From the IMG/VR virus record IMGVR_UViG_3300029258_002129, positions 1 through 31,489 of that record: DNA of 31,489 nt; one strand, 5' to 3'. The position numbers and the translations under genes are program-made. The DNA is from a virus (lineage: Duplodnaviria; Caudoviricetes). A model generated the notes under the pieces. It saw nothing but the letters and a program-made list of their open reading frames with translations. It was not told the origin of the DNA and searched no databases. Positions 1,586-27,063 of this stretch are shown here, piece after piece. How positions within the stretch are numbered: position 1 is the stretch's first letter; each line of letters starts with the position of its first letter.

Positions 1586-3007
1586 GTGGCAGCCGCCCGC
1601 CAGATACTAACCCCGTCACAGATCAACACCAGCCGCGAGCACCGCCGCCTGCGCCTCGCCATGCGCAATCGCCTGTGGCGCAAGATCGACTACGTACCCC
1701 ATGACCACCAGCGCCCCGTCCACGATGCGATTGTCCGCGGCGCCCGCTTCCTGAGCACCCGCGCCGGCCGCCGCTCAGGCAAGTCCGAGCTGTGGGCAAC
1801 CGAGGTCCTCACCGAGATGGCCTTCAGCCCGATCGGCCATCTGCCATTCCGCTACTGCCTGATCGGCGCGCCCGAGACCGACATCACCGACCACATCTTC
1901 GGGTACCTGTGGCGCTGGATCGTCGACCGCCGCGTACTGAACTATGAGCCGCTGTATAAGGCTACGCGCGAGCGGCGGATCGAGATGCCCTGGCACAGCA
2001 AGATCGAGGGCAAGACGACCGACAATCCGACATCCCTGCGCGGGCCCGGCCTCGTGATCACCGTCGCCGACGAGTACGCGTTCGGCGAGGACATCCTGGA
2101 CGATCACCTGAAGCCGCCGCTACTGGACTGCTCCGGAATCCTCGGCCTGCCTACAACCCCGAACGGCCAGAACCACGCTGCGGATACGCACGACCTGTGG
2201 CTGGAGCTGATGGAGGACGGCGATCCCGACTACTTCGCGACCAGCTGGACCAGCTACGACAACCCGCATCTGCCTGCGGGTGCGGTTGCCAAGATCGAGC
2301 AGTACGCACGGCGCACCGGCAACTACGACGTCTTCTGTGAGGAGTACCTGGCCCAGGTGGGCGCCATGGCCGGCGCCATGTATCCGATGTTCGACAAGCG
2401 CCGGCACGTTGGCGAGTTCGAGTTCGACCGGGATCTGGCGCCGCTCACGCTCGGCGTGGACTGGGGCTTCAGCAATCCCGCGGCGGTGGGCTTCTGGCAG
2501 TTCCTGGGCAATGAGCGGGCGCTGCTGCATGACGAGATTTACGAGCGCGGGCTAGTTACTGAGGAGCTGGCTGACCTGGTGCTGGAGTGGTGCGCTGAGC
2601 ACGACGTCGATCCGCAGGATGATGAGCAGTTCAATATCGCGTACTGCGATCCGAGTGGCCCCAAGGATATTGAGGTCTTCGAACGCAAGGGCATTCCGGC
2701 CGCGGGCAAGACGGCCACCGGCGGCAAGCTGAATGACGTGCGGGGCGGGATCGGCCGCGTCCGCAACCAGCTCAGCCGCGGAGCGATTGAGGGTGAGCCC
2801 GAGGAGGAACCGGCGATCCTGATCCATAAACGCTGCGTCAACCACATCAGGGAGATACCCAAGTACATGGTCAAGCGGACGGCTAAGCGTGAGCCGGACC
2901 CGGATGAGAAGCCCAGGAAGATTGATGATCACGCCTGCGATGAGATGCGCTACGCGGTGTTTGGTGAGTTGGGGGAAGTGTTCGATACAGCGAGTATCTG
3001 GTTGTGA
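1586..3007 (+). CDS. terL: Terminase large subunit
   Basis: Walker A AGRRSGKS, Walker B ITVADE, coupling motif TTP, RNase H-like nuclease motifs GVDWG, YCDPSG and DDHACDEMRY. Confidence 0.95.
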   Translation: MAAARQILTPSQINTSREHRRLRLAMRNRLWRKIDYVPHDHQRPVHDAIVRGARFLSTRAGRRSGKSELWATEVLTEMAFSPIGHLPFRYCLIGAPETDITDHIFGYLWRWIVDRRVLNYEPLYKATRERRIEMPWHSKIEGKTTDNPTSLRGPGLVITVADEYAFGEDILDDHLKPPLLDCSGILGLPTTPNGQNHAADTHDLWLELMEDGDPDYFATSWTSYDNPHLPAGAVAKIEQYARRTGNYDVFCEEYLAQVGAMAGAMYPMFDKRRHVGEFEFDRDLAPLTLGVDWGFSNPAAVGFWQFLGNERALLHDEIYERGLVTEELADLVLEWCAEHDVDPQDDEQFNIAYCDPSGPKDIEVFERKGIPAAGKTATGGKLNDVRGGIGRVRNQLSRGAIEGEPEEEPAILIHKRCVNHIREIPKYMVKRTAKREPDPDEKPRKIDDHACDEMRYAVFGELGEVFDTASIWL

Positions 3008-3014
3008 GGAGATC

Positions 3015-3227
3015 ATGACCCAGCGAATCCACAGGCCCACGTACAGCGCACGGCTGCCCCAGGTGCGCATCACTGAGGAGCAGCTGGAGCAACTGCGCCG
3101 CGATGCCCTGGACGCCGGCTACCGCAAGCCGGACGGCAGCGCGGACCTGAGTCGCTACATCCGCGCGATCCTGTTCGATGACGACAGGGACGCCGAGCCC
3201 GAGGCCAAGGCCACCATCTGGCTCTGA
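3015..3227 (+). CDS. Small ribbon-helix-helix (CopG/MobC-like) DNA-binding protein, 70 aa
   Basis: GAGGAG RBS and ATG3015. Strand-helix-helix pattern QVRITEEQLEQLRRDALDAG...LSRYIRAIL. Confidence 0.7.
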   Translation: MTQRIHRPTYSARLPQVRITEEQLEQLRRDALDAGYRKPDGSADLSRYIRAILFDDDRDAEPEAKATIWL

Positions 3228-3249
3228 GCAGCGTTTCACGATAAACATT

Positions 3250-3318
3250 CTGTACGTACGCCTGCCGGACTCGATCCTATAAGCCCGCGCCCAGACCGGC
3301 CTGCCGTTGTACGTACAG
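3250..3318. promoter_or_regulatory. Paired palindromic GTACGTAC sites, putative operator/promoter upstream of the portal gene
   Basis: GTACGTAC at 3252-3259 and 3309-3316, which also form the inverted repeat CTGTACGTAC/GTACGTACAG. GCCTGCCG is directly repeated at 3260 and 3299. TATAAG lies at 3278. Confidence 0.4.
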
Positions 3319-3340
3319 CTGCCTCGCTAGCCTGTTAGCA

Positions 3341-5524
3341 GTGCTCGGTGCACTCGCCAACCGGCTGCGAATGGGCATGTTCAACATCGCCCTGCGTGCG
3401 GTCGGCGCAACTCTGATCTTCCCTATCAATGACGCCCTGAGCAGTACCACGCGGACCTGGCGCTTCACCGACTACGTAACCGAGGGCTACAAGCGCAATC
3501 CGGTCGTCTATGCATGTCTCAGCCGGATCAAGGCAGGGGTGGCCGCGGTAATCATTAACCTCAACCTCGATGGCGAAGTAGTGGACCTGGCCGAGATCGC
3601 CAAGCTGCCAGAGCCGGTAAAGGGCCTGGCGCGGCTGCTTCGGCGCCCGAATGCCAATCAGACCTTTACGGAGCTACGCAAGGCGTGGGTGGATCACATC
3701 TACCTGGCTGGCTCGAGCTACTTCCGCGGCTGGGGCCTGGGGACCGACACGTTCCTGGGTAAGAAGCGCAGCAAGAAGGCGCCTCGTCTGCGCCTGCTTC
3801 GGCCCGATACCGTTGAGCTGGAGCACTCGCAGGATGAAGTAACCAAGTACGAGGTCCACTACGGTACCCGCCGTGAGGACGTGAAGCCGGACGAGATTGT
3901 CACCGTACGCTTCACTGATCCCAATGATGAGTTCGCTGGCGTCAGCCCGCTCGAGCCCTGTGCGTACACCATCGACAGCAGTAACTACGCCATCAAGTGG
4001 AACATGAACCTGCTTAAGAACGCCGGTGTGCCAGCGGGCGTGCTGATCGTGAAAAGGGTCAAGCAGCTATCGAGGAAGCAGCGGGCCGAGCTGCGCGACG
4101 AGTTCAAGGATGAAGTGGCGGGCCCGGACAACGCCGGCAACCTGCTGGTGATGAGCGGCGAAGATGCCGATTACAAGCAGCTGGGCCAGACCAGCCGGGA
4201 CCTTGACTGGCGGGGCGGCAAGCAGGAGAGCATGCGCGAAATCTGCGCGGCCCTGGGCGTGCCGTCCGTGCTGCTGGGTGATCCGCAGAACCGTACCTAC
4301 GCGAATGTAGAGGCGGCCAAGGCCGACTTCTACATCACCACCATCCTGCCGCTGCTGCGCCTGCTGATCGATGAGCTGGGCAACTTCCTGCTGCCCAAGT
4401 ACGAGCTGGAGGAGCGGGCCAGCTTTGCACTTAACACTGATGATGTGCCTGAGTTGCAGGAGAACGAGGCTGAATGGATCGGTGCCTATAAAGATGCGTT
4501 CTGGCTCACGATTGATGAGCTGCGCGAGCGGATGCCCAAACCGCTGGAGCCGTTCCAGGAGGACTGGTCGGAGATTCCGATGGTGCGGCTGCCGGGGTCG
4601 CTGAAGCCGGTCCAGCCCGAGGAGCTGGTGACTGCCGACGATGAAGGCGAGGAGATCCAGAAGCCCGCCGACGAGAAGGAGGAGGAGCGCCAGCGCCGCA
4701 GCGATGATGAGCTGGACTTCCCCGGCAGTCTCTACCCGACGCTAGAGCAGCGGGCCGAGTTCATCAGGCGCCAGGATGACCGCCGCGAGGAGGCTGAGCC
4801 GCGGTACCGCCGGGCGCTGGATACATACCTTGCCGGCCAGCTGGAGCGGGTGCTGGACAACCTCGATCTGCGCTCCGAGCAGCGCGCCGACGTCGTGCCG
4901 GCCGAGGAAATCCTGAAGCCTGAGGTCGAGTTGCTGCACTGGACCGACGAGATCGGTCCTACAGAGCAGTCCATCATCATCGAGTTCGGCCAGGCCGCGC
5001 TTGATGACCTGCTGGCGGACGGCACGCTGTTCAGCATCGAGCGGCCGGAGATGAAGCAGTGGCTGGCCGACAACCTGGCGGAGCGCAGCGCCCTGATCAA
5101 CGAGACGACCGCGGCCGACATCCAGGAGATTCTGGCGGAGAACGTTGGCGCTTCCCACAAGGAGACCGCCAAGCTGCTGCGCGGCTACTACGAGGACAGC
5201 ATTCCGAGTCGGCGTGCCGAGGCCATCGTGCGCACGGAAGTGGGCCGCGCGGATACCAAGGCCACGCTGGAAGGCTACAGCCAGGCCAGCGAGAAGCTGG
5301 GCAAGCGTATCCGTGCCGAGTGGATTACCGCCCGCGATGGCAAGGTGCGGGGCGGCGGCAAGGACCCGTACAGCCACATCGCCATGGACGGCGCGCTGAC
5401 CAACGACCAGGACGTATTCGAGACCGGCCAGGTCGGCGAGGTTGAAGGGCCGCTGATGGACGGTCCCGCGGGCTGGGTAATCAACTGCCGGTGCGGCGTA
5501 GCACCGTGGATCGAGGAGGAGTGA
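3341..5524 (+). CDS. HK97-family portal protein fused to a C-terminal Mu gpF/SPP1 gp7-like head morphogenesis domain
   Basis: Portal motifs NPVVYAC, LLRRPN, GVSPL, EICAALGVPSVLLG, TYANVE and LTIDELRE. An acidic linker is followed by RAEAIVRTEVGRA, EWITARDGKVR, H-x3-DG and INCRC. Start may be ATG3371. Confidence 0.92.
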   Translation: MLGALANRLRMGMFNIALRAVGATLIFPINDALSSTTRTWRFTDYVTEGYKRNPVVYACLSRIKAGVAAVIINLNLDGEVVDLAEIAKLPEPVKGLARLLRRPNANQTFTELRKAWVDHIYLAGSSYFRGWGLGTDTFLGKKRSKKAPRLRLLRPDTVELEHSQDEVTKYEVHYGTRREDVKPDEIVTVRFTDPNDEFAGVSPLEPCAYTIDSSNYAIKWNMNLLKNAGVPAGVLIVKRVKQLSRKQRAELRDEFKDEVAGPDNAGNLLVMSGEDADYKQLGQTSRDLDWRGGKQESMREICAALGVPSVLLGDPQNRTYANVEAAKADFYITTILPLLRLLIDELGNFLLPKYELEERASFALNTDDVPELQENEAEWIGAYKDAFWLTIDELRERMPKPLEPFQEDWSEIPMVRLPGSLKPVQPEELVTADDEGEEIQKPADEKEEERQRRSDDELDFPGSLYPTLEQRAEFIRRQDDRREEAEPRYRRALDTYLAGQLERVLDNLDLRSEQRADVVPAEEILKPEVELLHWTDEIGPTEQSIIIEFGQAALDDLLADGTLFSIERPEMKQWLADNLAERSALINETTAADIQEILAENVGASHKETAKLLRGYYEDSIPSRRAEAIVRTEVGRADTKATLEGYSQASEKLGKRIRAEWITARDGKVRGGGKDPYSHIAMDGALTNDQDVFETGQVGEVEGPLMDGPAGWVINCRCGVAPWIEEE

Positions 5525-5525
5525 G

Positions 5526-6236
5526 ATGTCACCGGAGCTAGTAGCAGTCAAGGGCGGCGACAAGCACATCCACGTGAGCAAGTTCCAGATCGCCGAGGTG
5601 ACCGATGCCGGCGAGGGCAGCGAGGGTCGTTTCAGCGGCTACGCGGCGATCTTCGATGAGCTGATCCCTAGTTACAACGAGATCGTCGACAAGGGCGCAT
5701 TCACACAGACGCTGCGCCACAATCGCGGGCAGGTACCGGTGCTGTGGATGCACGGCTCGTGGATTGACCCGCCGATGCCGATTGGCCTGGGACAGCGGGC
5801 CGAGGAGGATGACTACGGCCTGTTCGTCGAGGCCAAGCTGGACCTTCAGAACAACCAGGCAGCCCGCGAGGCATGGGGCTTTATGCGGCTGGCCAATGAG
5901 GTCAACCGCAAGATCGGCCTGAGCATCGGTTTCAATCCGATCCAGCTGCTGGTCACTGACGGCGACGAACCGAGTCACGTCAAGGAGCTGCGGCTTTGGG
6001 AGTACAGCCCGACACCGCCCGACTGGCAGGCGGCACCGAACGCAGGCATCGATGAGATGCGGAGCAGCTATCGCAGCGAGATGTACCGCGTAGTCGCGGA
6101 GCTGCTCAGAGAGATGGGAGTCAACAACTCGGCACTTGAGGCGGCAGCCGCTACTCAAGGCGCCACTACCGAGCTGACTGAGGCGCAGCTGCACTCAGTA
6201 GCGGAATCACTGGACGGATTACTCACCAAGTTATGA
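5526..6236 (+). CDS. HK97-family prohead maturation protease (Peptidase S78)
   Basis: FSGYAAIF, IVDKGAF, VPVLWMH (catalytic His), GLFVE, GLSIGF (catalytic Ser), LWEYS. Confidence 0.93.
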   Translation: MSPELVAVKGGDKHIHVSKFQIAEVTDAGEGSEGRFSGYAAIFDELIPSYNEIVDKGAFTQTLRHNRGQVPVLWMHGSWIDPPMPIGLGQRAEEDDYGLFVEAKLDLQNNQAAREAWGFMRLANEVNRKIGLSIGFNPIQLLVTDGDEPSHVKELRLWEYSPTPPDWQAAPNAGIDEMRSSYRSEMYRVVAELLREMGVNNSALEAAAATQGATTELTEAQLHSVAESLDGLLTKL

Positions 6237-8179: not shown

Positions 8180-9304
8180 ATGCACAAGTACGTGAACAGC
8201 GTGGAGGATATCAGGCTGAAGCACGACAGCCCGCCGGCGGGATCGCCCCTGGCCGGCCGGTCGCTGGCGGTCAGTTGCCACATGGAGCGGTGGCTGGTAG
8301 CGGAGCGGCTGCTGCCGCTGTTTGCGAGCTTCGGCCACATTTGGGTTGTCAACGAGCATCGGTACACCGACCGGCGGCTAGCGGATGCGTTCCACGAGCG
8401 GGAGATCGACACGTTCATCGTGGGTGAGTACGCGAGCCACTGGAACATGCGCAGCCGGGTTCTGCGGCAGGCGGGCATCCGCGTGTACCACTACGGCCTT
8501 GGGATCATCAGCCACTACGACACCAGCCGCTTCGACTGGGGCATGTACGACGACGATACGTGGCTGCGCTGGGCAACCAGCCCGGAGCAGCTGCCGTCCG
8601 AGCCCGCGGTCGACACCGGCGAGCAGGTGGAGCGGGTGCTGATCATCGGCCAGGTGCCGGGCGATCAGGCGCTTCAGTACGGCGGCCGCGGCTATACCAT
8701 GGCGCAGCTGGTGCGGGAAGTCCGGATGGTGCTTCCGCGCGCTGAGCTGTGGTACCGGCCGCATCCGCGTACGCTGGAGCGCGTCGGCATTCCGCATAGC
8801 CTGCCGGATAGCTACCTGCTCGATCCCGATGACAAGATCCCGGTGCTTGTACCGGATCGCTTCACCGACGCCGAGACCATGGCGGCGATTCGGGCCCGGT
8901 ACCCGCGGGCGCAACTGACAGCCGGCGGCTCGCTCGGCGACAGCCTCGCGCAGGTCGACGCCGCGGCGATGGTCAATAGCACGGCCTGCTACGAGTGCGT
9001 ACAGGCAGGCGTCACGGCCTACATCGCGGGCGTGCCGCTGATTGATCTGCATCAGGGCGGCATGGCACTGCTGGGCAACATCACGCAGGGCCGGCATCTG
9101 CCCAGCACCGACTACAGAGACAAGCTGCGGGCGCAGCTGCTCAGCATGCAGTCACAGCCAGGGCAGGTATACGGCGCCCATGAGTTCATCGCCCACGAGC
9201 AGGCGATGCAGACGGCGCGGAATTGCCACGGGCTGAAGTGGGCCAGTCGAGATGAGGATGCCAATCTGATGTTGACGCCTGAGCTACAGGGGGTGGTGCT
9301 GTAA
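8180..9304 (+). CDS. KpsC/KpsS-like (Capsule_synth, GT107-like) glycosyltransferase
   Basis: VLIIGQVPGDQAL, LWYRPHP and AMVNSTACYECVQAGV match the Q-x2-D, R/K-x-HP and NS-x-G/A-x-EA motifs of this family. Paralogous to the N-terminus of 27054..28646. Confidence 0.75.
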   Translation: MHKYVNSVEDIRLKHDSPPAGSPLAGRSLAVSCHMERWLVAERLLPLFASFGHIWVVNEHRYTDRRLADAFHEREIDTFIVGEYASHWNMRSRVLRQAGIRVYHYGLGIISHYDTSRFDWGMYDDDTWLRWATSPEQLPSEPAVDTGEQVERVLIIGQVPGDQALQYGGRGYTMAQLVREVRMVLPRAELWYRPHPRTLERVGIPHSLPDSYLLDPDDKIPVLVPDRFTDAETMAAIRARYPRAQLTAGGSLGDSLAQVDAAAMVNSTACYECVQAGVTAYIAGVPLIDLHQGGMALLGNITQGRHLPSTDYRDKLRAQLLSMQSQPGQVYGAHEFIAHEQAMQTARNCHGLKWASRDEDANLMLTPELQGVVL

Positions 9305-12051: not shown

Positions 12052-12849
12052 ATGCAAGCCAAGGCTTTACCCCCCAAAGTAACCGGCGGTTGGATTACCG
12101 CACGATGCGATGTGCCTGAGCATCTGCTGGAGCAGGCCAAGCAGAGCTTCAGCGGATTCTACGGAACCTTCTGCGCGGCCCTGGAGAGCCTGCCGGAAGT
12201 CGATGCAGCGCTGCGGGAGGCCGCGGCCGATCTGAAGCTCGACATCGAGCACGGCCCGGAGGAGTTCTACCATACGCTCCGCTACGACCCGATCGTGGAC
12301 TTCGAGCGGAAGCGCAACTGGCACACGGCGCTGATCAATCTGCTGTCGCTGCTGGAGCTCGAGCAGCTTGAGTCGCTGGGCCGCGTGTTCGACTGGGAGC
12401 CGAGCGTTCGGTTCAAGATTCGGGAGCTGCACGACCGGCATGCGGAGTACGCGGCGGGTCTGAATATCAGCGGCGACACCGTGAACGTTCGGACGGCGGC
12501 GCGTAGCTGGGCGCGCGTGGCATTGACTCACATTGAGGGCCTGACTGATCCGGAGACCGGCAAGGACTATGAACTGAGCTTCCAGAAGGTCACCATCGAC
12601 GGCAAGAAGGTGCGGGTCGTTACCACTGCCTGCGCCGACCGGCTGCCGCAGCTGCTGCTGCTGGAGGTCATGCAGGCGTGCCGCGATGCAACCGGCCTGA
12701 GCGAGGAGGAGGTGGAGGACGTGGTTTTTCCCTCAGGCTCAGCCTCAGCCTCCAGTGTCCCAGGGAGTGCTCAGGCCAAGGACAAGATGAGCGAGACTGT
12801 CCCCACCACTGCCTCCAGGGACTCCTCAAGATCGGAGAGCGACGCGTAG
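12052..12849 (+). CDS. Tail assembly chaperone (gpG-like)
   Basis: AGGAGG RBS; between tube and TMP; GLSEEEVEDVVF followed by a Ser-rich low-complexity tail. Confidence 0.75.
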   Translation: MQAKALPPKVTGGWITARCDVPEHLLEQAKQSFSGFYGTFCAALESLPEVDAALREAAADLKLDIEHGPEEFYHTLRYDPIVDFERKRNWHTALINLLSLLELEQLESLGRVFDWEPSVRFKIRELHDRHAEYAAGLNISGDTVNVRTAARSWARVALTHIEGLTDPETGKDYELSFQKVTIDGKKVRVVTTACADRLPQLLLLEVMQACRDATGLSEEEVEDVVFPSGSASASSVPGSAQAKDKMSETVPTTASRDSSRSESDA

Positions 12850-13094
12850 GAGACGCCATTGAGGACATCATTGCCACAGGCTGCCCGTTCCGCGACGTCA
12901 GCGAGTTCGCCGTGCGCGTGCAGCGGCTTTACGGCTACTACAGCACGGGTCATCTGCTGCGAGCGGGCGGTCTTGTTGATCAGCCCCTGTGGTATCTGGC
13001 CGCGATGCGGCTGGCGGATTCAGTAGTGAAGGAGCATCAGCGCGAGGAGCAGGAGGCCGCGCGCCGTGACATGGAGAGCAAGCTTAGACGGTAA
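12729..13094 (+). CDS. gpT-like extension, probably reached by -1 frameshift to give a gpGT fusion of about 347 aa
   Basis: Open -1 frame from GGTTTTTC (12723-12730) to the TAA overlapping the TMP ATG; contains the gpT-type motif GHLLRAGGLVDQPLWY. Confidence 0.75.
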   Translation, partial: SLRLSLSLQCPRECSGQGQDERDCPHHCLQGLLKIGERRVGDAIEDIIATGCPFRDVSEFAVRVQRLYGYYSTGHLLRAGGLVDQPLWYLAAMRLADSVVKEHQREEQEAARRDMESKLRR

Positions 13095-16000
13095 TGGGTA
13101 GCGATACCGAACAGAAGATTCTGGAGGTCGTGCTGGAGCTGAACGACAAGTTCAGCGGCGGTCTGGCCAATACCAACAGGCAGATCGGCGGCCTCGCCGG
13201 CAACCTCCAGAAGACCGGCCGGGCGATGAAGGCCGTGGGTACCAGCATGAGCCGGTACGTGACGGTGCCGATCCTGGCTGCCGGCGGAGCGATTATCAAG
13301 CTGGGCCTGGACTTTGACAAGTCGATGCGCCGCGTCAAGGCGCTCAGCGGTGCCACCGGCGAGCAGTTTGAACAGCTGAGGCAGCAGGCAAAGGACCTCG
13401 GCGCGACGACGGTATTCACGGCCAATCAGGCCGCGGAAGCGCAGGGCTTCCTGGCGATGGCCGGCTTCAAGACGAACGAAATCCTGGGCGCCATGCCCGG
13501 CACGCTTGCCATGGCTGCCGCGGGACAGGTCGATCTGGCACGCGCAGCCGACATCGCGAGCAATATCCTCACCGGCTTCAATTTGGAAGTAAAGGACATG
13601 GGCCGCGTGTCGGATGTGCTGACCAACACCTTCACTAGTGCGAATGTCGATCTGGAGATGCTCGGCGAAACAATGAAGTACATAGCACCTGTTGCTGCGG
13701 GTGCCGGTATGCAGTTCGAGGAAATTGCGGCCGCAGTAGGTCTGATGGGTAACGCCGGTATTCAGGCTAGCCAGGCCGGTACTTCATTGCGCATGGGCAT
13801 CCTGTCGCTCATTGATCCGGGAGATAAAGCAGCGGCCATCATGAAGGAGCTGAAGCTCCAGGTAATGGATTCCGAAGGCGCCATGCTGCCTCTGGTCGAC
13901 ATCATTCGCCAACTGGAAATCGGCTTGGGGGAAATGGGCGAGGCTCAGCAGATGGCCACTCTGAAGACCTTGGTTGGTCAACGCGCCGCGTCGGGGTTTG
14001 CCGGCTTGATCTCACAGGGCAGCGAGGCGCTGAACGAGTTGACACAGTCCAACTTAAACGCCGCGGGCAAAGCGCAAGAGATCGCCGAGGAGATGATGAC
14101 GCCGTGGGAGCGGTTCAAGTCCGCGGTGCAGGGCGCGGGGCTGGCGATCTCCGAGTCCGGCCTGCTGGACGATTTCACCAGGATCATCACGAAGCTCACC
14201 GACTATCTCCGGAAGATAGCGCAGGCCAGCCCCGCAACCCTGCGGTTTGCCACTGGGCTCGCAACAGTAGCGGCCATCGCGGGGCCGGCGCTGATGGTCA
14301 TCGGGCAGATGAGCATCGGAATCGCGGCACTGTCACGCGGCATGGTTGGCTTTACCGCGGGCATCAACGCGTTTCTGGCCGGTCCTGGTTGGGGCTTCAA
14401 TGTCTGGCTGGCGAAGGCGACGGGGACTGCGGCCGGTGGCGCGGGAGCGCTCGGCCTACTCGCCGCTCTTACAGCGCTGGCGGCAACTGTCTGGACCATC
14501 AACATCAAGTATGCGATCGAGAACTGGGACCCATCGGCAAGAGCCGCTGAGGACTTCCAGCGAATGCTGCGAGAGCGGGTGGGACCGGAAGGCGAGACGG
14601 CCTGGGATATGGCTACCGACTTCCAGAAGGGCGAGGCTGCATTGGAGTACGCGATGCAGGACGCGGCTCCCCGGCTCAAGACGAACTTTGCATCGCTCTG
14701 GGAGGGGCTGAAACTCGTCTATGACCAGAGCTGGTTCCATACCACTGCCGACAAGGATATCCAGGCTGCGCTCGATGCGATTGCCCAGCTGTTCAGCAGT
14801 GGCACGGGACCTATCGCTGCTGAGTGGGACGCGTTCTGGCAGGGCTGTAAAGAGATCTACGACACGAGCTGGTTCCATACCGTCGCCGATGTCTGGATTC
14901 AGGAGAAGCTGGATGCCATTGCGGCGTTCTTCACCAATGCCAAGACGACCATTCCGCAGTTGTGGAATGACATGTGGACTGCTCTGAGGGATACAGCCAC
15001 AAGCTGGGGCCAGCAGATTGTCGACAAGGTGACGTGGTTCAAGGAGAAGGTACAAGGCGTCTTTACGTGGCTGAAGGATGTGGTAGTCGGTCACTCGATC
15101 TGGCCGGACATGTGGGGCAAGATGCTCAATGTCACGGTTGCCTATGCAGCTGACATCGAGTCTGAAGTATCCACGATGAGCGGCAACATCCTGGACGAGA
15201 TTCGTACGCTGGAGGACACGTCGGTCGCCAGCTTCGAGCATATGGGCTGGGCGATGGCGGATGCATTCCAGCGGGCCGGCCAGCAGGTGGCGGCAACGCT
15301 GGCCGGAATCGCACAGCAGGTCGCGGGAGTGGCGACCACGCTGCGCCAGCAGCTGAGCGATGCGATTGCGGGCGCGGTTGAAGCCGCCAATCAGGCGATG
15401 ATCGCGGGCGGTACCGGCTGGGAGACCGCGGCCGCGGGGCTCGATACCGAGGAGGGTATCCTGCGCGGCGACAACGGCGAAATCCTGATGCAGGGCGGGC
15501 AGTACACGATGGCCGGTCTCGAGGCGTTGAAGGCTGCGGGCGTCGACATCAGCGAGATGCTGTCGATGATCAACACCTACGAGCCGCAGTATCAGAATCC
15601 GCTGGCTACGTACAGCCGGTCAGGTCTGGAGAACCTTGGTCTGCTGGGCGGTTGCGGGCCCGGCGGTTGAGGCGTGCCGTCCCCTCAGGATGAGGGGCTA
15701 TTCGGTACGGATCAGCAGGGACAGCAGCAGGTTGCCCAGGACACGGCGCGCGGAATGCGGCAGCAGGGCTCGATGCTGGGCGGCATCCTGACGGAGAGCC
15801 TGGGGCGCAGCATCGGCGAGGCGTTCCGCACCCACGACTGGTCAGGCGTCGCCGACGAGCTGGCTAACACGATGAGCCAGCTGTTCAGCCAGGTGTTCAG
15901 CGGGATGGGGCCGTTCGGCGGCTTCGTCGGCGGGATATTCGGCGGCTTGTTCGGTGGCGTGCTCGGCGGCCTGTTCGGTGGCGGCGGTAGCAGCAGCCGG

Positions 16001-16177
16001 CGCGGCGAGTCCATGAGCAACCCGATGTACACCTATGATGTGCGGGCCGAGTCGCTGCTGACCGAGCTGCTCAATGCCACCAAGCTCCAGCGCCTACAGA
16101 TGGCCGCGGCGGGCGGCGCTGACGCCGGTGACCTGCAAAGCGACATCTACCTGATGGGCGGTGACGATCTTGGCTAG
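13094..16177 (+). CDS. Tape measure protein (TP901-type core): 858 aa to the UGA at 15668, or 1027 aa with in-frame UGA readthrough (putative Sec859)
   Basis: FDKSMRRVKALSGAT, LGATTVFTANQAAEA, LAMAGF, LGETMKYIAPVA, GIQASQAGTSLR; Trp-spaced repeats and VVGHSIWPD. ORF 15674..16177 is in the same frame and looks like a TMP C-terminus. Confidence 0.9.
14692..14980 (+). repeat. Two-copy 46-aa (138-nt) internal repeat in the tape measure gene (boundaries approximate)
   Basis: GAGCTGGTTCCATACC occurs at 14728 and 14866. Protein: YDQSWFHTTADKDIQAALDAIA versus YDTSWFHTVADVWIQEKLDAIA. Confidence 0.8.
15668..15709 (+). promoter_or_regulatory. In-frame UGA plus bacterial SECIS-like hairpin
   Basis: TGA 15668-15670; lower stem CGTGCCG/CGGTACG; upper stem CCCCTCA/TGAGGGG; apical loop GGA after a 17-nt spacer from the UGA. 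Confidence 0.65.
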
Positions 16178-17033
16178 CGATGCTGTGAGCAGGACAGTCA
16201 GGATCACGCAGACGGACGGTGCACCCGACTACTGCCGCCGCGACAACGGCGTCGGCTTCGATGACTACGACAGTGACATCGGCGACCTGAGCGGTGCTGG
16301 CAACCCGCTATGGGGCGGCGCGGCACACGTCATGTACTTCGGCGCCGACGCCAAGTTCATGTCCATGGGCCTGCGGCTGGTCAGCGCGCCGAGCATCGGC
16401 GCGATCACCTGGGAGTATAGCGACGGCGCTGCGGGCTGGGTTGCCTTCAACGGCAGCAACCCGTTCCACGATTCGACCAGCGACTTCACCGTCGACGGCT
16501 TCATGGCGTGGCAGGACCCGCCGGGCGCATCGGCCTGGGGTAAGAACACCGTTGACGGCACAGAAGCATACTGGATCAGGGCCAGCATCGGCGGCCATAC
16601 CGGCACCGGCAACTTCCTCAACTTCCTGCGCAACCAGACGCTCCAGGGACCGCTGCGGCTGGCGGCACAGATCCCGGCGGGCAATGTGTTCCGCGACATC
16701 AGCGACGATTTGCAGAGCGCTGATGTTGCCTATACCGGGCCCACCACGCTGACTATCAGCTGCAAGCTCAAGGCGACGATTCACCCGACCACGCTCAAGG
16801 GCGGCCCGAACCTCGCGCTGCTGCATTACTGGTGGCAGAACCGCGCCGCGCTGTTCATCGAGGACCTGGCGCAGTCTACGGCGCCGCCTGATCTCGACTG
16901 CGAGAGCTACTGGAAAGACTACACCGGCAGGCTCAGCAAGGGCGCCGGTGATCACATCGCGCCGTTCAAGATGAGTAGCAGCGGCTATGAGCTGCACTTC
17001 ATGATCTCAGCTGTAACGGCGGTGCTGGAATGA
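16161..17033 (+). CDS. Putative distal tail (Dit) protein with an inserted beta-sandwich domain
   Basis: First gene after the TMP; internal ITWEYSDG...W...DG...W..P...W.K.TVDG..AYWIRA segment. Confidence 0.55.
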   Translation: MTILASDAVSRTVRITQTDGAPDYCRRDNGVGFDDYDSDIGDLSGAGNPLWGGAAHVMYFGADAKFMSMGLRLVSAPSIGAITWEYSDGAAGWVAFNGSNPFHDSTSDFTVDGFMAWQDPPGASAWGKNTVDGTEAYWIRASIGGHTGTGNFLNFLRNQTLQGPLRLAAQIPAGNVFRDISDDLQSADVAYTGPTTLTISCKLKATIHPTTLKGGPNLALLHYWWQNRAALFIEDLAQSTAPPDLDCESYWKDYTGRLSKGAGDHIAPFKMSSSGYELHFMISAVTAVLE

Positions 17034-19414
17034 GCATCACCATCACATTCACCAACCCTGAGGAGAACTACAACGGTGGCGGCGGCTGCTCGGCAGCGGT
17101 GCCGGTGGCCACTCTGGAGCCGGTCTACGAGCTGGGAGTGGTCAGCAGCTGTACTCTGACGATCGCGCACGACGTCAGCAGCAAATACGGGCTGGAGACG
17201 GACGATGCGAATAACCCGTGCCAGGTCAACAGCACGGCGCTGGTAGCTGTCGACGGGAGCACCGTGCTCCGCGGCCGCGTGGCCGACAAGCCGAAGCACG
17301 TGCGAGTCGTCAACGATCAGCGGAACACCGTCACGTACCTCTCCGTGAAGCTGGAGGGCAACGAAGCCGCGCTACTCGATGCGGTCTGCCCCGATGCCAG
17401 CGGCAACGAGAGCTGGACCATGGCGACGGACACCTATCAGGTGGGCGCCGCCGGCGCCATGCCGCTTAAGGCCAGCAGCAGCTACGGCACCTTCGCCAGC
17501 GATACGCTGTGGCCTGATCCCGCCGACGCCGAGGGTGCGAAGTGCTACATCAGCGACGCCAAGAGCCCGTCAGATACGATCAACGCGCAGATTCTGATCG
17601 GCGCGGCCTGCCCGTTCTACATCGAGTTCACGGCGACCGACCAGGGCTTCCCGCCGCAGTTCTGGCTGAAGATCAACGCCGAGTGGTTCTACTGCGAGGG
17701 CTACGACGCGACGGGCGGCGGCGGGCGGTACCGCACGCAGGCCATTGCCCGCGCGGAGCTGGGTACCGCTGCGGCCGGTCACGCCGCCAACGACACCGCC
17801 TACGCGAAGGTCGCTAAGAAGATCGGCCCGCAGACACCGGTGCTCTACCGCGATGATGGCGGCGGTGCCGTCAAGATGCGGTACGACAAGGACTACAAGG
17901 TTCTCACGGGATACGGCTGCTTCGTGCTGGTGGGCCTTGATGCCGGCGCGGATACCTTCACCGGCACATACAGCGTGTACGACGAGGATAAGTCCCTGGA
18001 CGCGGGTAGCAACGTGGTCTATCTGGAGGATGTGGTCCAGGTGCTTGTCACCGGCCCGGCTGCCTACGGCGGCGCGGGCTTCGCGGCGGGCGACTGCGAC
18101 TTCGACGCGCTGGAGATCGGCATCACGCGGATCGACTACGACCCGGAGAAGTGGCCGCAGACGCCGTGGAACGCAATCCAGCATCTGATCCGGCTGCTCA
18201 AGCTTGAGGATGAGATCGGCTTCTGGTTCAAGCACTCGACGGGCAAGTTCCGGCTGGCGCAGATCGGCAATGCCGGTGCACCTGATCTGACCATCACCGG
18301 CGGTATCCAGCAGGTGCAGGCGGACATGAGCCTGCGCGATGTGTACTCAGCTGTTCGGGTCGCCTACACGTACGACCAGGACCCGAACCTGATCAAGCAG
18401 GAGCATAGCTACCACTGCGAGCCGGCGGCGGCAGGGGCGCAACCGGACCGCTGGCTCAAGGTCACCGCTGGCGGTGAGGACTGGCATACGGATGAGTATG
18501 TGGAGTACGCAACCGGTGATCCCGCAGATACGGACTTCGGCGTGGACATGCTCACGGATGGCAAGAACGAGACCAAGCTGATGGCCGACTACGAGCACGA
18601 CCCAGGCGGGGAGTTCGACTTCTGCCACTTCTGGTTCGGCGACGGGGCGCCGACGATTCGCCTGGACTACCTCGATCTGTGGGTCAATGCGTACCGCGCG
18701 ATTACCAGCGACCGCAGCACCCGCAACGACGAGGGTGAGTTCGTGGTCCGCGTCGACGGCTGTGCTGACTACGATACCGCCACGCATGCACCGACAAGCG
18801 GCGTCTGGTACGAGCTGGGCGGCGCGATCATGGGCGTGCCGTCGCGCGATGGGACGGCGGTCGAGCTGGAGATGAGCAGCTTCATCGTTCGCCAGGTCAA
18901 CGCGATCCGGATTGTGTTCGAGTACATGGCCGGACCGGTCGACGGCGGCGACCAGTACTGGGCCTGCGTGCACCAGCTGATCGTGCAGGGCAACGTGACG
19001 AAGTATGCGCTGGTGCAGACGACGGATAACGCCGCGCTCAAGACAGAGCCGGAGTACATCTACAACGTTGGCGCCCATACGAAACTGCGCGGGGGGATCA
19101 ACTCCAGCGGCAGCGCCGGCTGCCCGCGGGTGAAGTCCATCAAGAACATCGGCCCGGCCAGCGACGCGGCGGCACTGACCATCGGACGCGCCTACCTGCG
19201 CAACGCGCTGAAGCTGTACAGCATGCGGCAGTATCGCGGCTCCGGAGCGCTGAGCGCGTGGCCTGAGCTGGGCGACACGATTGCGATTGACGAGGACAGC
19301 AGCGGCGCCGCGGACTACACCGGCGTCTGCCGGATGTTCAAGCCGACGATCCGGCCCGGCAAGCGCACCTACCAGCTGCGGGTGCTCGACTACGACGCGA
19401 GTGACATCGAATGA
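17030..19414 (+). CDS. Putative tail hub/Tal-like baseplate protein
   Basis: 794 aa. N-terminal CTLTI...VLRGRV, central YSAVRVAY and C-terminal PELGDTIAI resemble hub proteins; internal ARAELGTAAAGHAAND repeat-like motif. Confidence 0.65.
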   Translation: MSITITFTNPEENYNGGGGCSAAVPVATLEPVYELGVVSSCTLTIAHDVSSKYGLETDDANNPCQVNSTALVAVDGSTVLRGRVADKPKHVRVVNDQRNTVTYLSVKLEGNEAALLDAVCPDASGNESWTMATDTYQVGAAGAMPLKASSSYGTFASDTLWPDPADAEGAKCYISDAKSPSDTINAQILIGAACPFYIEFTATDQGFPPQFWLKINAEWFYCEGYDATGGGGRYRTQAIARAELGTAAAGHAANDTAYAKVAKKIGPQTPVLYRDDGGGAVKMRYDKDYKVLTGYGCFVLVGLDAGADTFTGTYSVYDEDKSLDAGSNVVYLEDVVQVLVTGPAAYGGAGFAAGDCDFDALEIGITRIDYDPEKWPQTPWNAIQHLIRLLKLEDEIGFWFKHSTGKFRLAQIGNAGAPDLTITGGIQQVQADMSLRDVYSAVRVAYTYDQDPNLIKQEHSYHCEPAAAGAQPDRWLKVTAGGEDWHTDEYVEYATGDPADTDFGVDMLTDGKNETKLMADYEHDPGGEFDFCHFWFGDGAPTIRLDYLDLWVNAYRAITSDRSTRNDEGEFVVRVDGCADYDTATHAPTSGVWYELGGAIMGVPSRDGTAVELEMSSFIVRQVNAIRIVFEYMAGPVDGGDQYWACVHQLIVQGNVTKYALVQTTDNAALKTEPEYIYNVGAHTKLRGGINSSGSAGCPRVKSIKNIGPASDAAALTIGRAYLRNALKLYSMRQYRGSGALSAWPELGDTIAIDEDSSGAADYTGVCRMFKPTIRPGKRTYQLRVLDYDASDIE

Positions 19415-22799: not shown

Positions 22800-23414
22800 A
22801 TGGCGACCGCTGCTGACATCCGCGAGGGTGACGTGCTGGCCTTTGGCGGCAATCCGTGCAACATCGGCCACCTGATCATCATGCTGCTTCAGCAGGCGAA
22901 CGGTGGTGACAATGACGGCGCGTGGCGGGCAGTACACGTCGGCATCGTCGTTACGTGGATGGGACGGTTGTTCCTCGCGGAGTTTCTGCTGCTTCGCATC
23001 TTGCCCTGGCCGCGGGGCGGGATGCGGCTGACGCCGCTTGAGCGGCGGTTGGCCGAGTACCCGCATGGGATCGTGCATCTGCCACTGGACGGCGACGCGC
23101 GGGCCCGGCTGGACAGTGACCGCCTGACCGAGATCACCGTCAAATCACAGTCCTTCTACTACAACATCTGGGGCCTCGTATTCGCGGTTCTCCGCTGCTT
23201 CATCGGCTGGCGGCGCCCCGGCAGCTACTTTTGCTCCGAGTGGGTACGCGCCGCGCTCAGCTACGCCCTGGCCTGGAACGGCAGCCGGAAGCTGCTGGTC
23301 CGCCGCGGCGGCAGGCTGATGTTCATCGAGGCGCGCGTGGAGCCCCAGCGATACAGCCCGTGGGATATCTGCCGGGCTCCAGTATTCGGTGATGCGGAGG
23401 TAGTCAGCGCGTAG
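22800..23414 (+). CDS. Permuted papain-like NlpC/P60 amidase (YiiX/YebB-like)
   Basis: IREGDVLAF, HVGI (His before Cys), YN, YFCSEWV, SPWD. Confidence 0.8.
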   Translation: MATAADIREGDVLAFGGNPCNIGHLIIMLLQQANGGDNDGAWRAVHVGIVVTWMGRLFLAEFLLLRILPWPRGGMRLTPLERRLAEYPHGIVHLPLDGDARARLDSDRLTEITVKSQSFYYNIWGLVFAVLRCFIGWRRPGSYFCSEWVRAALSYALAWNGSRKLLVRRGGRLMFIEARVEPQRYSPWDICRAPVFGDAEVVSA

Positions 23415-24664
23415 TGGATCACAGAGCGATAGTCGAGCGGCTTTGCCGCGAGCGGCGCGATCTCGTTAGCCAGGGCTACGACAATGCGCTCGGCTATCTC
23501 TCTGGGCTGCTGCCCGAGCTGGAGATTCACGGCTATCCCAGCGGCACCGAGGTCTGGAACTGGATCATCCCCGATCGCTGGGAAGTGGACGCGGCCTGGG
23601 TGGCGGCGCCGGACGGCCGCCGGATCATCGACATTGACCAGCACGGCCTGCACGTCGCGTCGTACTCTCAGCCGATCCGCCGGCGTGTGAGCCACGGCGA
23701 GCTGATGGCGCATCTGATCACGCGGCCCGATGCAGCGGATGCTGTCCCCTTCGGCTACAGGTACTACCGCGACGACTGGGCCTTCTGCCTTCAGCACAAC
23801 CGCCTGCCGGAGCTGTGCCACGAGTACTACGACGTGCTGATCGACTCGCGCTTCGAGCCCGGCCGGCTCAAGGTCGGCGAGGTCTACCTGCCCGGCGCGG
23901 AGCGCGACGAGATAGTGCTGATCGGCCATCTGTGCCACCCGTTCCAGGCAAATGACAATGCCAGCGGGATCGCCGTCCTGATGGGGCTGGCCGACAAGCT
24001 GCGGAACGCGGTGCACCAGTACAGCTACCGGATCATCCTCTGCCCCGAGACCATCGGCAGCATTGCCTACCTGGCCCACAATGAGCACCTGCTGCATCGG
24101 ATGCGGTACGGCATCGCGCTGGACATGCTGGGCAATTCGAACCGGCTGATCGCGCAGCTGACGCCGGGTGGCAATACGCAGCTGGACAGGGCCGCGGAAC
24201 TGGTGATCGGCGAGTGCGCGCCGTATCGGATGGTCATCGGCAACGACGAGCGGGTGCTTAATAGCGTCGGCGTGCGAGTACCGACGATCAGCATTTCGCG
24301 GGCTGCGCGCTGGGGAGAGACGAGCGAGCTGCCCTTCAGGGGCTACCACAGCAGCATGGACACGCCGGATGCGCTGGACTACGACCTGCTCGCCGAAGCG
24401 CAGGACGCCGTGGAGTGGATTCTGACGCTGCTCGACGTCAACTTCAGTCCGCAGTCGCGCTGCCGCGGGCCGATCATGCTGAGCAGGCACGACCTGTGGA
24501 TCGACCCAGGCGACGACCACGAGCGCGGGATACAGATGCAGATGGTGCTGGACCTGCTCGACGGCAAGCACACGGTAATCGACATCGCCCATCAGGTGGG
24601 CATCGACCCGGCGGAGCTGCTGGCGTGGCTCTACCGCATGCGAGAGAAGGAGTTGATCGGCTAG
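23414..24664 (+). CDS. DUF4910-family aminopeptidase-like polysaccharide biosynthesis protein with C-terminal HTH
   Basis: SGTEVWNWIIP..W, LHVASYSQP, HLCHP.QANDNASG, PETIGSIAYL, DERV, YHSSMDTP; winged-helix end LDGKHTVIDIA. Confidence 0.85.
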   Translation: MDHRAIVERLCRERRDLVSQGYDNALGYLSGLLPELEIHGYPSGTEVWNWIIPDRWEVDAAWVAAPDGRRIIDIDQHGLHVASYSQPIRRRVSHGELMAHLITRPDAADAVPFGYRYYRDDWAFCLQHNRLPELCHEYYDVLIDSRFEPGRLKVGEVYLPGAERDEIVLIGHLCHPFQANDNASGIAVLMGLADKLRNAVHQYSYRIILCPETIGSIAYLAHNEHLLHRMRYGIALDMLGNSNRLIAQLTPGGNTQLDRAAELVIGECAPYRMVIGNDERVLNSVGVRVPTISISRAARWGETSELPFRGYHSSMDTPDALDYDLLAEAQDAVEWILTLLDVNFSPQSRCRGPIMLSRHDLWIDPGDDHERGIQMQMVLDLLDGKHTVIDIAHQVGIDPAELLAWLYRMREKELIG

Positions 24665-24673
24665 GAGGCGCGG

Positions 24674-25027
24674 ATGAAGAAGCTGAAAGATGTACATGAC
24701 GTCGTTTTTATGGAGCAGCGCGACGATGCAGGCAACCTGGTTGAATTGCGGATCAGGGCGGTCAACAGCCGCGAGGGCAGCATTGATCTAGCGCTGCTAT
24801 CCGTGCGTCCAGTCCTTGGAGGCGACGGCCAACCCGCTCTGCAGTTGGACCAGCTGAAACTGCATGATACGGATGTACTTGATCTGCGCGCCGCGCTGAA
24901 TCGGCCAGTTCTGCTGAACGTCCGCCGTGATGAAATCGACGCGGAGTGGCGTCAGCACGAGGAGCTGCTGGCGAAGATGAGGGAAGCGGAGCGGCAATCA
25001 GGGGAGGCGGATACCAGTGGCCGCTGA
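24674..25027 (+). CDS. Hypothetical protein
   Basis: AGGAGG RBS; coupled to both neighbours. Confidence 0.6.
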   Translation: MKKLKDVHDVVFMEQRDDAGNLVELRIRAVNSREGSIDLALLSVRPVLGGDGQPALQLDQLKLHDTDVLDLRAALNRPVLLNVRRDEIDAEWRQHEELLAKMREAERQSGEADTSGR

Positions 25028-25811
25028 CTACCAGAGCCTCTATAACGAGCAGTACTTCGCGGCCTACGTTGATGATCCGGCGCGCGACGAGATGCAGCGG
25101 CAGGAGTTCCACCAGCGGCTTGAGAAGTGGCTTAACGCGTACTGGCAGCCTGCGGTGGATCGGGCGTTGAAGGCCGAGAATGGCAGTGCGGTGATTGGGC
25201 ATGTGCTCGATATCGGTTGCGGCCTGGGCCGATTCCTGGATTGGTACTTCGTGGACGTCAGCCGCTACATCAATGTGGATGATGTAGGTATCGGCGCGAT
25301 TACTGACTTCGTAGGTTGGCACAAGTACGGCATCGAGATCAGCGAGCATGCGCGGGCCATCGCCAACAAGAAGGGCATCCGGTTTCACTGGCTGGAGGGC
25401 AAGCCCGAGCAATTCGACCTGATCATCCTGCGCGGCAGCCTGCAACACCTCGACCGCCCGCTGGATACGCTGCACAACTGCTACGAGTGGCTGAAGCCCG
25501 GCGGGCTGATTGCGCTGCTGGCTACCCCGAACGCGGGCAGCGTGGTCTACCGGCTCTGGGGTAGCATGCCGATGCTGGACCCGGCGCGGAACTTCGTGGT
25601 CTTGAGCGACGCGCAGCTGACGAACTGCCTGAAGCACATCGGCTTTGACGTGCTGGAGGTCCACTATCCGTACAGGGGGACGCCGTATGCGAGGCCGCTG
25701 CGCGACGCCTGGCGGTTTGCGCTGCGGCTGCTGGGTATCCGGCGGCTGCCGTTCGCGTGGCCGCGCAACATGATGGAAGTATACGCCCGCAAGCCGGGCG
25801 GGGAGCAGTGA
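25017..25811 (+). CDS. Class I SAM-dependent methyltransferase
   Basis: Motif I VLDIGCGLGRFL, then YGIEIS, FDLI, LQHL..P and LKPGG. Confidence 0.9.
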   Translation: MAADYQSLYNEQYFAAYVDDPARDEMQRQEFHQRLEKWLNAYWQPAVDRALKAENGSAVIGHVLDIGCGLGRFLDWYFVDVSRYINVDDVGIGAITDFVGWHKYGIEISEHARAIANKKGIRFHWLEGKPEQFDLIILRGSLQHLDRPLDTLHNCYEWLKPGGLIALLATPNAGSVVYRLWGSMPMLDPARNFVVLSDAQLTNCLKHIGFDVLEVHYPYRGTPYARPLRDAWRFALRLLGIRRLPFAWPRNMMEVYARKPGGEQ

Positions 25812-26063: not shown

Positions 26064-26330
26064 ATGACCGGTAATATGGTCGGCGAAACACCTTGTTGCA
26101 CCATCGGTGGACCGGACCTTAGCGGGCCCGGTACCGGTGTCATGGTCTCTGGCTCGGTGATCCGTACCCGATATGTGGGCGAAGGAGAGCCGTCGCCTGG
26201 GACCGTACAGACGGTGCAGTACAGCATTGCGCTACTGCAAACGACCAGCATCATTCAGCTCAACCTCCCAGAGCGTGACTGGAATGCTGGTGACATCGTC
26301 AATCTGACGATTGAGAAGCACCAGGAGTAG
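26064..26330 (+). CDS. Hypothetical protein (88 aa, beta-rich)
   Basis: GGAGG RBS before ATG26064; C-terminal WNAGDIVNLTIEK resembles a small beta-barrel. Confidence 0.6.
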   Translation: MTGNMVGETPCCTIGGPDLSGPGTGVMVSGSVIRTRYVGEGEPSPGTVQTVQYSIALLQTTSIIQLNLPERDWNAGDIVNLTIEKHQE

Positions 26331-26373
26331 ATCGTAGGACGGGGTCGGCGGTGGCCGGCCCCGATACCGTCAT

Positions 26374-27063
26374 ATGAGCCGTGACATCTTCGAGCATCTG
26401 GGGGAGCTGGGCGTCACCAACCCCAGCTTCATCGTGGCCAGCGGGCCCTGCGGCCGGCCGCACTACGATCAGATCCCGGCTGGCTACTTCATCGCGGCGA
26501 TCAACAGCGCCATCCTGCTGCCGCTGAAGTTCAGCCTGTGGATATGTACCACGCCCGCCGCGCACGTGCTGGACCTGCCCTGGTGGCCGGTCGGACTGGA
26601 CAGCGGGGTACCGAGTCTGATGCGCCGCAACCCGGCCAGCGTGCCGCCCTACGGCGAAGTCCCGATGCGCAATGAGCGGGCCACGTACACGATGCGCGGC
26701 CACTCGATCAAGCGCCACGCCCTGCCGGATGGCGCAGATACGCTCGATGAAGGAGCCAGCAGCGGGGGTGTAGGAATTGCGCTGCTGCACCACGCGCTGC
26801 TGGAGCAGTTCCCGGACGGCCCGCGCGAGATCATCACCTGCGGCTTCGAGCTGATGGGCCGCGCGCACTTCGACGGGTCGGTCACGTGGCATGGCGAGGG
26901 CGACGGCTGGGCTACTCGCCGCGAGCACGCCAATAAGCTGATCCGCCGCGCCGCCGAGCTGGGTACGCGGGTGCGGTCGCTGTCGCCGGTACATCCCGAG
27001 CTCGAGCTGGAGCGCGTACCGGAAGCCGAGATCGCCGGCTGGCAGGAGGCCGCGTGCAGCTGA
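26374..27063 (+). CDS. Maf/DUF115 (GT29/GT42-like fold) putative glycosyltransferase
   Basis: FIVASGPCG, IAAINSA, SSGGVGIALL, EIITCGFEL...HF. Confidence 0.6.
   Translation: MSRDIFEHLGELGVTNPSFIVASGPCGRPHYDQIPAGYFIAAINSAILLPLKFSLWICTTPAAHVLDLPWWPVGLDSGVPSLMRRNPASVPPYGEVPMRNERATYTMRGHSIKRHALPDGADTLDEGASSGGVGIALLHHALLEQFPDGPREIITCGFELMGRAHFDGSVTWHGEGDGWATRREHANKLIRRAAELGTRVRSLSPVHPELELERVPEAEIAGWQEAACS

Follow-up and report, generated by a model that had tools for sequence, protein, structure and literature searches.

A conserved in-frame UGA in a phage tape measure gene and its probable decoding as selenocysteine

The tape measure gene and its internal UGA

The window analysed here is the whole 31,489-nt IMG/VR virus record IMGVR_UViG_3300029258_002129, which by its gene content (profile searches of the window proteins) is part of the genome of a tailed phage that infects bacteria. 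Its tape measure protein (TMP) gene is interrupted by a UGA codon, directly followed by a hairpin resembling a bacterial selenocysteine insertion sequence (SECIS); an earlier note, made from the letters of the window, had proposed that this UGA is read as selenocysteine (Sec). The features at the locus are as follows.

13094..16177, plus strand: TMP gene, 1027 aa when read through the UGA and 858 aa if terminated there
15653..15655 (TGC), plus strand: Cys854, five codons before the UGA and the likely partner of Sec859
15668..15670, plus strand: in-frame UGA, codon 859, predicted to encode selenocysteine; it follows C854-G-P-G-G
15671..16177, plus strand: extension of 168 codons, a Gly-rich linker and then the conserved helical TMP C-terminal region (~residues 894-1007)
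15673..15709, plus strand: SECIS-like hairpin with lower stem 15673-79/15703-09, upper stem 15681-87/15691-97 and GGA loop 15688-90

The product matches PF10145 at residues 96-295 (E 6e-51, 173 bits against a cut-off of 33.2) and TIGR01760 (E 3e-71, 240 bits against a cut-off of 28.8), and tape measure families of PHROG match as well. With its domain above cut-off and the gene flanked by the major tail/chaperone region on one side and the baseplate genes on the other, the protein belongs to the TP901-1 family of TMPs. Behind UGA859 the frame remains open for 168 codons to the TAG at 16175-77; motif, open codons, TAG end and total length of 1027 aa all agree with what the earlier note had read from the sequence. 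Among the 34 open reading frames (ORFs) examined, the TMP is the only one whose terminal TGA is followed by over 49 open codons, and the fold behind it is the strongest after any TGA.

UGA serves as the stop of 16 of the 33 other window genes, and six of the stops run into the following start codon (ATGA or GTGA). Since UGA is a common stop and no other in-frame stop on the sense strand was found in the conserved window genes, the code is not reassigned, as the earlier note had stated. Eight listed runs, all metagenomes labelled as sediment or seawater, contain window DNA; no RNA run is among them, which weighs in neither direction. Over 10,771 nt two IMG/VR contigs are identical, and the Logan contigs of four runs (word depth ~9) contain no other letter at the UGA site; runs X5-X8 of the eight do not cover it. 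Logan contigs and IMG/VR records may share source data and are not independent samples, and an error would find some room in the circumstance that all records of this exact phage may derive from the same few samples. The real argument is comparative: because the same codon is conserved in divergent lineages, four in number and described below, the UGA is by this comparison not a sequencing error. In the aligned conserved genes of the relatives the sole sense-strand stop is again a UGA, in a portal gene of record G002. We therefore regard a sequencing error, a recent nonsense mutation or a phage-wide code change, at odds both with these lineages and with the use of UGA as a stop in the window, as the least probable of the explanations considered here.

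The hairpin behind UGA859 has the stems, pairing, GGA loop and 17-nt spacer that had been described for it. Its loop starts 17 nt past the UGA, the pairs of the upper stem have probabilities of 0.66-1.0 in a 200-nt context, and the 53-nt fold reaches -24.3 kcal/mol (z -2.7), a value equalled by 5 of 200 shuffles. The consensus for bacterial SECIS elements comprises an apical loop of 3-9 nt, an upper stem of 4-16 bp, a spacing of 16-37 nt, a G in the first two loop positions and a minimum free energy <= -7.5 kcal/mol (PMC13188914). Evaluated by our own script, the window hairpin conforms to it with a 3-nt loop, 7 bp, a spacing of 17 and -10.6 kcal/mol for the upper stem. Rfam yielded no match at the hairpin (4 matches, E 1.9-9.9).

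Conservation of the UGA in divergent lineages

Relatives were found with the next gene and the hub gene downstream as bait, and four of their TMP genes could be read across the junction; L010, too short to reach it, stands outside this count. Three of the four contain the UGA (L005, L011 and L066; not L226). The sites read CGPGG-TGA in L005 (record G002) and CGPQG-TGA in L011, both located via the neighbouring gene with no motif imposed. L066 (record G003) carries two sites 61 codons apart, CVGDG-TGA at 2833 and CGPGG-TGA at 3016, and its TMP ends at a third, ordinary UGA that overlaps the next ATG; the upstream site was not imposed by the search pattern described below. The TMPs of these relatives are 34-54% identical to the window TMP.

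A search with the pattern CGPGG-TGA-GG gave 75 loci, among them six TMP genes: two of the window's own phage and those of L071, L066, L042 and L092. The other 69 loci were treated as chance after their open-frame lengths had been checked and nine of them read. L042 and L092 represent one lineage, whose TMP is of a different family (PF20155) and has no BLAST match to the window TMP. Its CGPGG-TGA lies on the minus strand in ORF 2046-5576, with 865 open codons before the UGA and 319 after it, and the Pfam TMP C-terminal domain PF09718 is found downstream of the UGA. On this sequence evidence, a UGA codon of this kind is followed by an established TMP domain in this lineage. Alignments A3 and A7 used as queries returned no new locus, and a word-index protein search with the junction returned the window's own protein alone. 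In L005, L011, L066 and L092 the internal codon is always TGA, never TAA or TAG; among the window TMP and its UGA-bearing relatives the true stops vary (TAG, TAA, TAA and TGA).

A comparable codon occurs in the portal-MuF gene of G002 (L220; minus strand, around G002:C1 59772) in the context E-T-C-G-TGA-G-V-P-S, with 451 codons before it, 296 after it and a GGU-loop hairpin at +17. The site lies in an insertion of ~18 aa in the portal-MuF linker that is absent from the window and G003 portals. In the cross-comparison of relatives, for which the list of hits was inspected, it is the only sense-strand stop in an aligned conserved gene. The GVPS that follows it is the same four residues that follow the window TMP UGA, and the shared GVPS and hairpin suggest a small portable unit.

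We compared the hairpins of all sites by a test narrower than the general consensus (loop at +16 to +19, stem of >=4 bp, <= -4 kcal/mol), the thresholds of which were chosen post hoc; the hairpin itself was imposed in no search that found the sites. All seven UGA sites pass, with stems of 5-7 bp, a G in the first two loop positions and loops at +16 to +18. As background, the test is passed by 126 of 3530 TGA triplets counted in these genomes, by none of the window's 16 true TGA stops and by 5 of 51 distinct pattern matches outside TMP genes, these five being near-copies of one sequence. Loops beginning with GG at +17 or +18 are found at five of the seven sites and at 13 of the 3530 background triplets (sites included). 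The stems share little sequence, and at each of their five innermost pairs at least three pair types occur across the seven sites. UGA and SECIS-like hairpin are thus conserved in homologues, the geometry being kept in divergent relatives through stems of different sequence. Hairpin-passing TGAs near a Cys at window positions 8640, 19847, 3238 and 196 were rejected, as they lie in short alternative or antisense frames.

The extension as a probable TMP C-terminus

Against the four relatives, the extension shows fewer nonsynonymous than synonymous differences (pN 0.19-0.41, pS 0.54-0.75, the UGA-bearing L005, L011 and L066 having pS 0.67-0.75, with silent sites near saturation), and its G+C content at third codon positions is 0.86. 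A junction search of all cluster representatives gave 32 non-self matches, 12 long proteins (460-808 aa) and 20 short ORFs. The 12 long proteins are uninterrupted, and the extension is homologous to their C-termini. By its 168 open codons, its pN below pS and these homologues, coding sequence continues past the UGA, and the matches to the ends of uninterrupted proteins uphold the earlier view of the extension as a TMP C-terminus. The C-terminal region matched no TMP family of Pfam or PHROG, and matches to the extension in the ESM Atlas all stayed <0.9. An AlphaFold2 model of the junction, of low confidence (pTM 0.31), has a coil linker and then five helices; the motif falls into low-confidence coil (pLDDT <50 over model residues 12-38), where the model is uninformative on a Cys-Sec bond.

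The locus could alternatively hold two genes, an 858-aa TMP and a small reinitiated protein, akin to a genetically pre-cleaved TMP C-terminal fragment; cleavage of such fragments has been proposed in other phages. GTG15674, 4 nt past the stop, would provide the start, and 20 of the 32 extension homologues are called as short ORFs. This GTG, however, lies inside the lower stem and is absent in the four other lineages: codon +2 is GTG in the window only and ACG, CAA, ACG and GCG in the others. The first possible starts after the UGA fall at different codons in each lineage and none is shared, so that no start codon is conserved. Shine-Dalgarno pairing at GTG15674 amounts to -5.7 kcal/mol, and 12 of 15 chosen true starts reach -6.3 or stronger. 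The poor ribosome binding site pointed out earlier is thus indeed weak, but it is not decisive alone because coupled starts in the window are also weak. Two genes would leave the stop free to drift, yet TGA is kept throughout. Short ORFs are the expected output of gene calling on a recoded gene or a short contig, and one of them, P0030, is the extension of L005 itself. Taken together, we consider two separate genes very improbable.

Cysteine context

All five UGA-bearing TMP lineages have a Cys at position -5 relative to the UGA. It is the sole Cys of the TMP in L011 and L092, L066 contains only its two -5 Cys, and in L005 it is the sole Cys before the UGA; the window TMP has one more, C585. 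TMP relatives are almost Cys-free, with 19 Cys in the 108,261 residues of the 119 closest TMP proteins. Two of the long homologues, P0023 and P0028, are uninterrupted and contain exactly two Cys each, arranged as C-x4-C in the same linker. These pairs lie 44 and 52 residues before a conserved DW/NW motif, and the UGA sites lie 44-62 residues before it. As sequences, P0023 and P0028 offer a positional pairing of Cys with U859, weaker evidence than the column-wise Sec/Cys alignment used as a criterion in selenoprotein searches (PMC12013277). Other Cys arrangements in the linkers of homologues are C-x9-C in P0021, a single Cys in P0026 (a fragment) and C-x2-C in P0036.

Decoding of UGA859

By comparison of sequences, a core virion gene contains a real and conserved recoding signal: the UGA, the Cys at -5 and the G-loop hairpin are all conserved, and the extension is coding. 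The best reading is host SelB/SECIS-dependent insertion of selenocysteine at UGA859 of one 1027-aa TMP, to which we assign a probability of about 0.8. The Sec at UGA859 put forward in the earlier note stays a prediction, now with strong comparative support from the UGA, the Cys at -5, the hairpin geometry, the lack of a conserved start and the Cys-pair homologues. Three outcomes that the note had listed as refuting it (an error at the codon, two independently initiated genes, a hairpin that is not conserved) were looked for and did not appear.

Several observations weigh against this reading. (i) The second site of L066 and L092 were found by a pattern that imposes CGPGG-TGA-GG, and a second pattern gave no new members among 119 of ~800 matches (about a sixth of the collection). 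(ii) The thresholds of the hairpin test were set only after the sites were known, the G-loop hairpin of L092 is not its minimum-energy fold, and that of the first L066 site is weak (-4.5 kcal/mol). (iii) L226 (record G006), which shares the hub gene at 46% identity, has an uninterrupted TMP without Cys, and 9 of the 12 long homologues have no Cys; because of these, the UGA-Cys motif is, as far as the sequences go, dispensable in many lineages and not universally needed. (iv) BLAST leaves the Cys of P0023 and P0028 unaligned with U859, and the linker is not alignable residue by residue. (v) Scans of genome contigs, with alignments of the downstream gene and the hub, found no host (53 + 64 pattern matches, none confirmed), and in none of the five phage records, all incomplete, was a tRNA-Sec found. 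No tRNA was found in the eight loci searched, and GenBank phages gave no match to hub or junction.

Ordinary leaky readthrough, for example with Trp, could also produce the long protein; stimulated by the stem-loop, it would set the ratio of short to long TMP, and the identity of the inserted residue would be irrelevant. Viruses do set product ratios in this way, with stimulation by 3' stem-loops, as described for eukaryotic viruses (PMC8310308), and the G002 portal UGA sits between the portal and MuF parts, where such a ratio makes sense. Leaky readthrough nevertheless leaves unexplained why a Cys is fixed at -5 in nearly Cys-free proteins, why the loop G is kept at a fixed distance and why two sites stand in series in L066, and no Trp is aligned with the UGA in any alignment seen. 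At the sequence level, the Cys-pair homologues and the doubled motif of L066 favour chemistry over a mere leaky stop, and we judge leaky readthrough to be improbable, if less so than two genes.

The rival closest to selenocysteine is SECIS-dependent recoding with cysteine, in which a host SelC*/tRNA-ReC reads UGA as Cys and the virion contains Cys-x4-Cys and no selenium. Natural C-x4-C homologues exist, and P0019 (NCBI protein HSW65420.1), the best homologue of the extension, is labelled Dissulfurispiraceae; of 28 proteins checked it alone has a taxon label, which may be a binning accident. Dissulfurispiraceae are a family of Nitrospirota. With a SECIS downstream, SelC*/tRNA-ReC tRNAs insert Cys at UGA (PMC13582414), and such tRNAs are described in anaerobes including Nitrospirae and deltaproteobacteria (PMC5389517). 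However, tRNA-ReC is reported in ~17% of Sec-type genomes, in addition to tRNA-Sec (PMC13582414), and a TGC would suffice for Cys, yet TGA is kept across saturated divergence. In hydrogenase genes, conservation of the loop G split Sec-type from Cys-type members (100% versus ~26%; PMC13582414). We take cysteine insertion to be unlikely, although less so than leaky readthrough.

Proposed mechanism and role of the motif

Under selenocysteine insertion, host SelB and Sec-tRNA would recode UGA859, with SelB bound to the G-loop hairpin 17 nt downstream. The full 1027-aa TMP would then carry Cys-Gly-Pro-Gly-Gly-Sec in a flexible linker that immediately precedes the C-terminal helices. Termination at the UGA would give an 858-aa TMP without the baseplate-anchoring C-terminal region, which presumably could not seed a tail; TMP C-termini are known to anchor in the baseplate (PMC11445458). 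Because the 858-aa product would lack this C-terminal anchor, tail assembly would depend on the Sec supply of the host.

Given recoding, the role we would tentatively put first, at somewhat less than even odds, is a Cys854-Sec859 selenylsulfide that staples the linker and is opened at ejection. The bond could form within one chain across the Gly-Pro-Gly-Gly turn or between chains of a TMP oligomer. The Se-S staple would hold the linker in the virion, and reduction at ejection would open it. Se-S bonds arise and survive in more reducing surroundings than S-S bonds do, so with selenium the bond would be made and kept in reducing sediment, in contrast to a disulfide. A metal site on the tail axis may be considered, by analogy with the JBD30 TMP, in which an ion coordinated by sulfur has been modelled, although we think it unlikely. 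A motif that acts mainly as a gate, making virion output or the ratio of long to short product depend on the supply of selenium, seems slightly less likely again, and some other role altogether the least likely of the four.

From the sequences, the unit of Cys, UGA and hairpin appears to behave like a portable insert in linkers of virion proteins. In its widest form, the proposal is that phages of selenium-using anaerobes possess a portable cassette of Cys, Gly-Pro turn, UGA and SECIS, now in two TMP families and a portal-MuF fusion. The cassette would build reduction-resistant Se-S latches into particles and tie assembly to host selenium status, giving structural, non-enzymatic selenoproteins that ordinary gene callers would hide as split genes. 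We hold this proposal to fall just short of an even chance.

Relation to known systems

In bacterial SelB/SECIS selenoprotein genes, of which the formate dehydrogenase alpha subunit is the prototype, we find the same in-frame UGA, nearby Cys and Cys-containing homologues, as well as a 3' stem-loop inside the ORF with G as the first of a 3-nt loop at +17 (PMC13188914). The present case differs in that the product is a phage structural protein and not an enzyme, and in that C-x4-U lies in a predicted disordered linker. The only x4 spacing among the selenoprotein rows looked at is the UxxxxU of TsoB (PMC13188914). Known viral selenoproteins are the glutathione peroxidases of the poxviruses molluscum contagiosum and fowlpox (PMC8310308). 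They share the need for host recoding of UGA to Sec, but are captured host enzymes with a eukaryotic SECIS, whereas here a core virion gene with a bacterial-type SECIS would be recoded (PMC8310308).

Siphophage TMPs of the TP901-1 family (TIGR01760/PF10145), with JBD30 gp46 and T5 pb2 described in PMC11445458, share the N-terminal domain, the place in the tail operon and a C-terminus that is helical and follows an unstructured linker. Each known TMP is encoded by one uninterrupted ORF, and the 119 closest matches are almost Cys-free, whereas the gene studied here is interrupted by UGA. In the Agrobacterium phage Milano, reducible disulfides lock the tail and have been proposed to control tail triggering (PMC10811340). 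The idea of reducible chalcogen cross-links controlling this step is shared, but Milano has many Cys-Cys bonds in a contractile sheath and baseplate, and here one or two Cys-Sec pairs are predicted in the TMP. Three huge phages encode tRNA-Sec genes, and no selenoprotein gene or SECIS was identified in that study (PMC10747093); they likewise suggest that phages interact with Sec decoding, and no such tRNA was found in the incomplete records analysed here.

The words phage, virus and tail are absent from the 2026 selenoprotein review in its accessible text (PMC13188914), and the main text of BSepDB contains no 'phage', 'virus' or 'viral'. Among the papers listed by our searches, which covered mostly non-subscription literature and, for BSepDB and the 2026 review, main text, we found no phage selenoprotein described. 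The observations are best explained by a phage structural selenoprotein produced by a known route, bacterial SelB/SECIS decoding, as far as sequence comparison can tell. If true, these would be the first phage selenoproteins that we found described, structural rather than catalytic, and the roles of selenocysteine would widen beyond the enzyme-type and redox-motif families of the 2026 review. The phages would be restricted to hosts with Sec machinery, a usable signal for host prediction, and some annotations of a 'truncated TMP plus small hypothetical gene' in sediment viromes would be single recoded genes.

Neighbouring genes and further observations

The window encodes a terminase, a portal-MuF fusion, a protease, capsid, connector and tail genes, a CHAP endolysin with a peptidoglycan-binding domain, ParB and a Mom-like gene. 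Two genes follow the TMP gene.

16161..17033, plus strand: tail gene directly after the TMP gene, whose end it overlaps; 290 aa if started at GTG16161; Dit by position only
17030..19414, plus strand: probable hub protein of the baseplate (Tal/gp27-like), with which the TMP C-terminus would be expected to pair

The overlap of the TMP with the next gene, noted earlier as an overlap with a Dit start, is present; the Dit identity finds no profile match, the product of 16161..17033 having none in Pfam, PHROG or NCBIfam. TTG16170 fits the N-termini of relatives better than GTG16161. The model of this product (mean pLDDT 50) has a carbohydrate-binding-like N-terminal fold and no resolved fold over residues 160-290, and its N-terminal domain resembles a tail chain of phage LME-1 (E 1.4e-6). 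For the product of 17030..19414, structure neighbours in the ESM Atlas are VgrG, Phage_GPD and Prophage_tail clusters (TM by query 0.35-0.49); they are a lead only, and the protein is likely the baseplate hub.

Before the TMP gene, the overlapping ORFs 12052-12849 and 12678-13094 are placed like frameshift-joined tail assembly chaperones; a simple search for slippery heptamers over 12601-12850 found none. Genes 8180-9304 and 27054-28646 are paralogous and of a family not known, and both match the same two places in G002 (37-46% identity). A cargo block at 23414-25811 contains a DUF4910/M28 aminopeptidase-like gene and a methyltransferase, which also occur in G002 (48% and 43%), but elsewhere in that genome. 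Within 26064-26380, a strong G+C hairpin (-26.3 kcal/mol over 50 nt) follows the TAG of an 88-aa ORF and is possibly a terminator or processing site. ARAGORN reports a tRNA-like element with an irregular anticodon loop at 31038-31113, overlapping the end of the Mom-like gene (30239-31078), and the relative G002 encodes an RtcB RNA ligase (L218:10459-11634).

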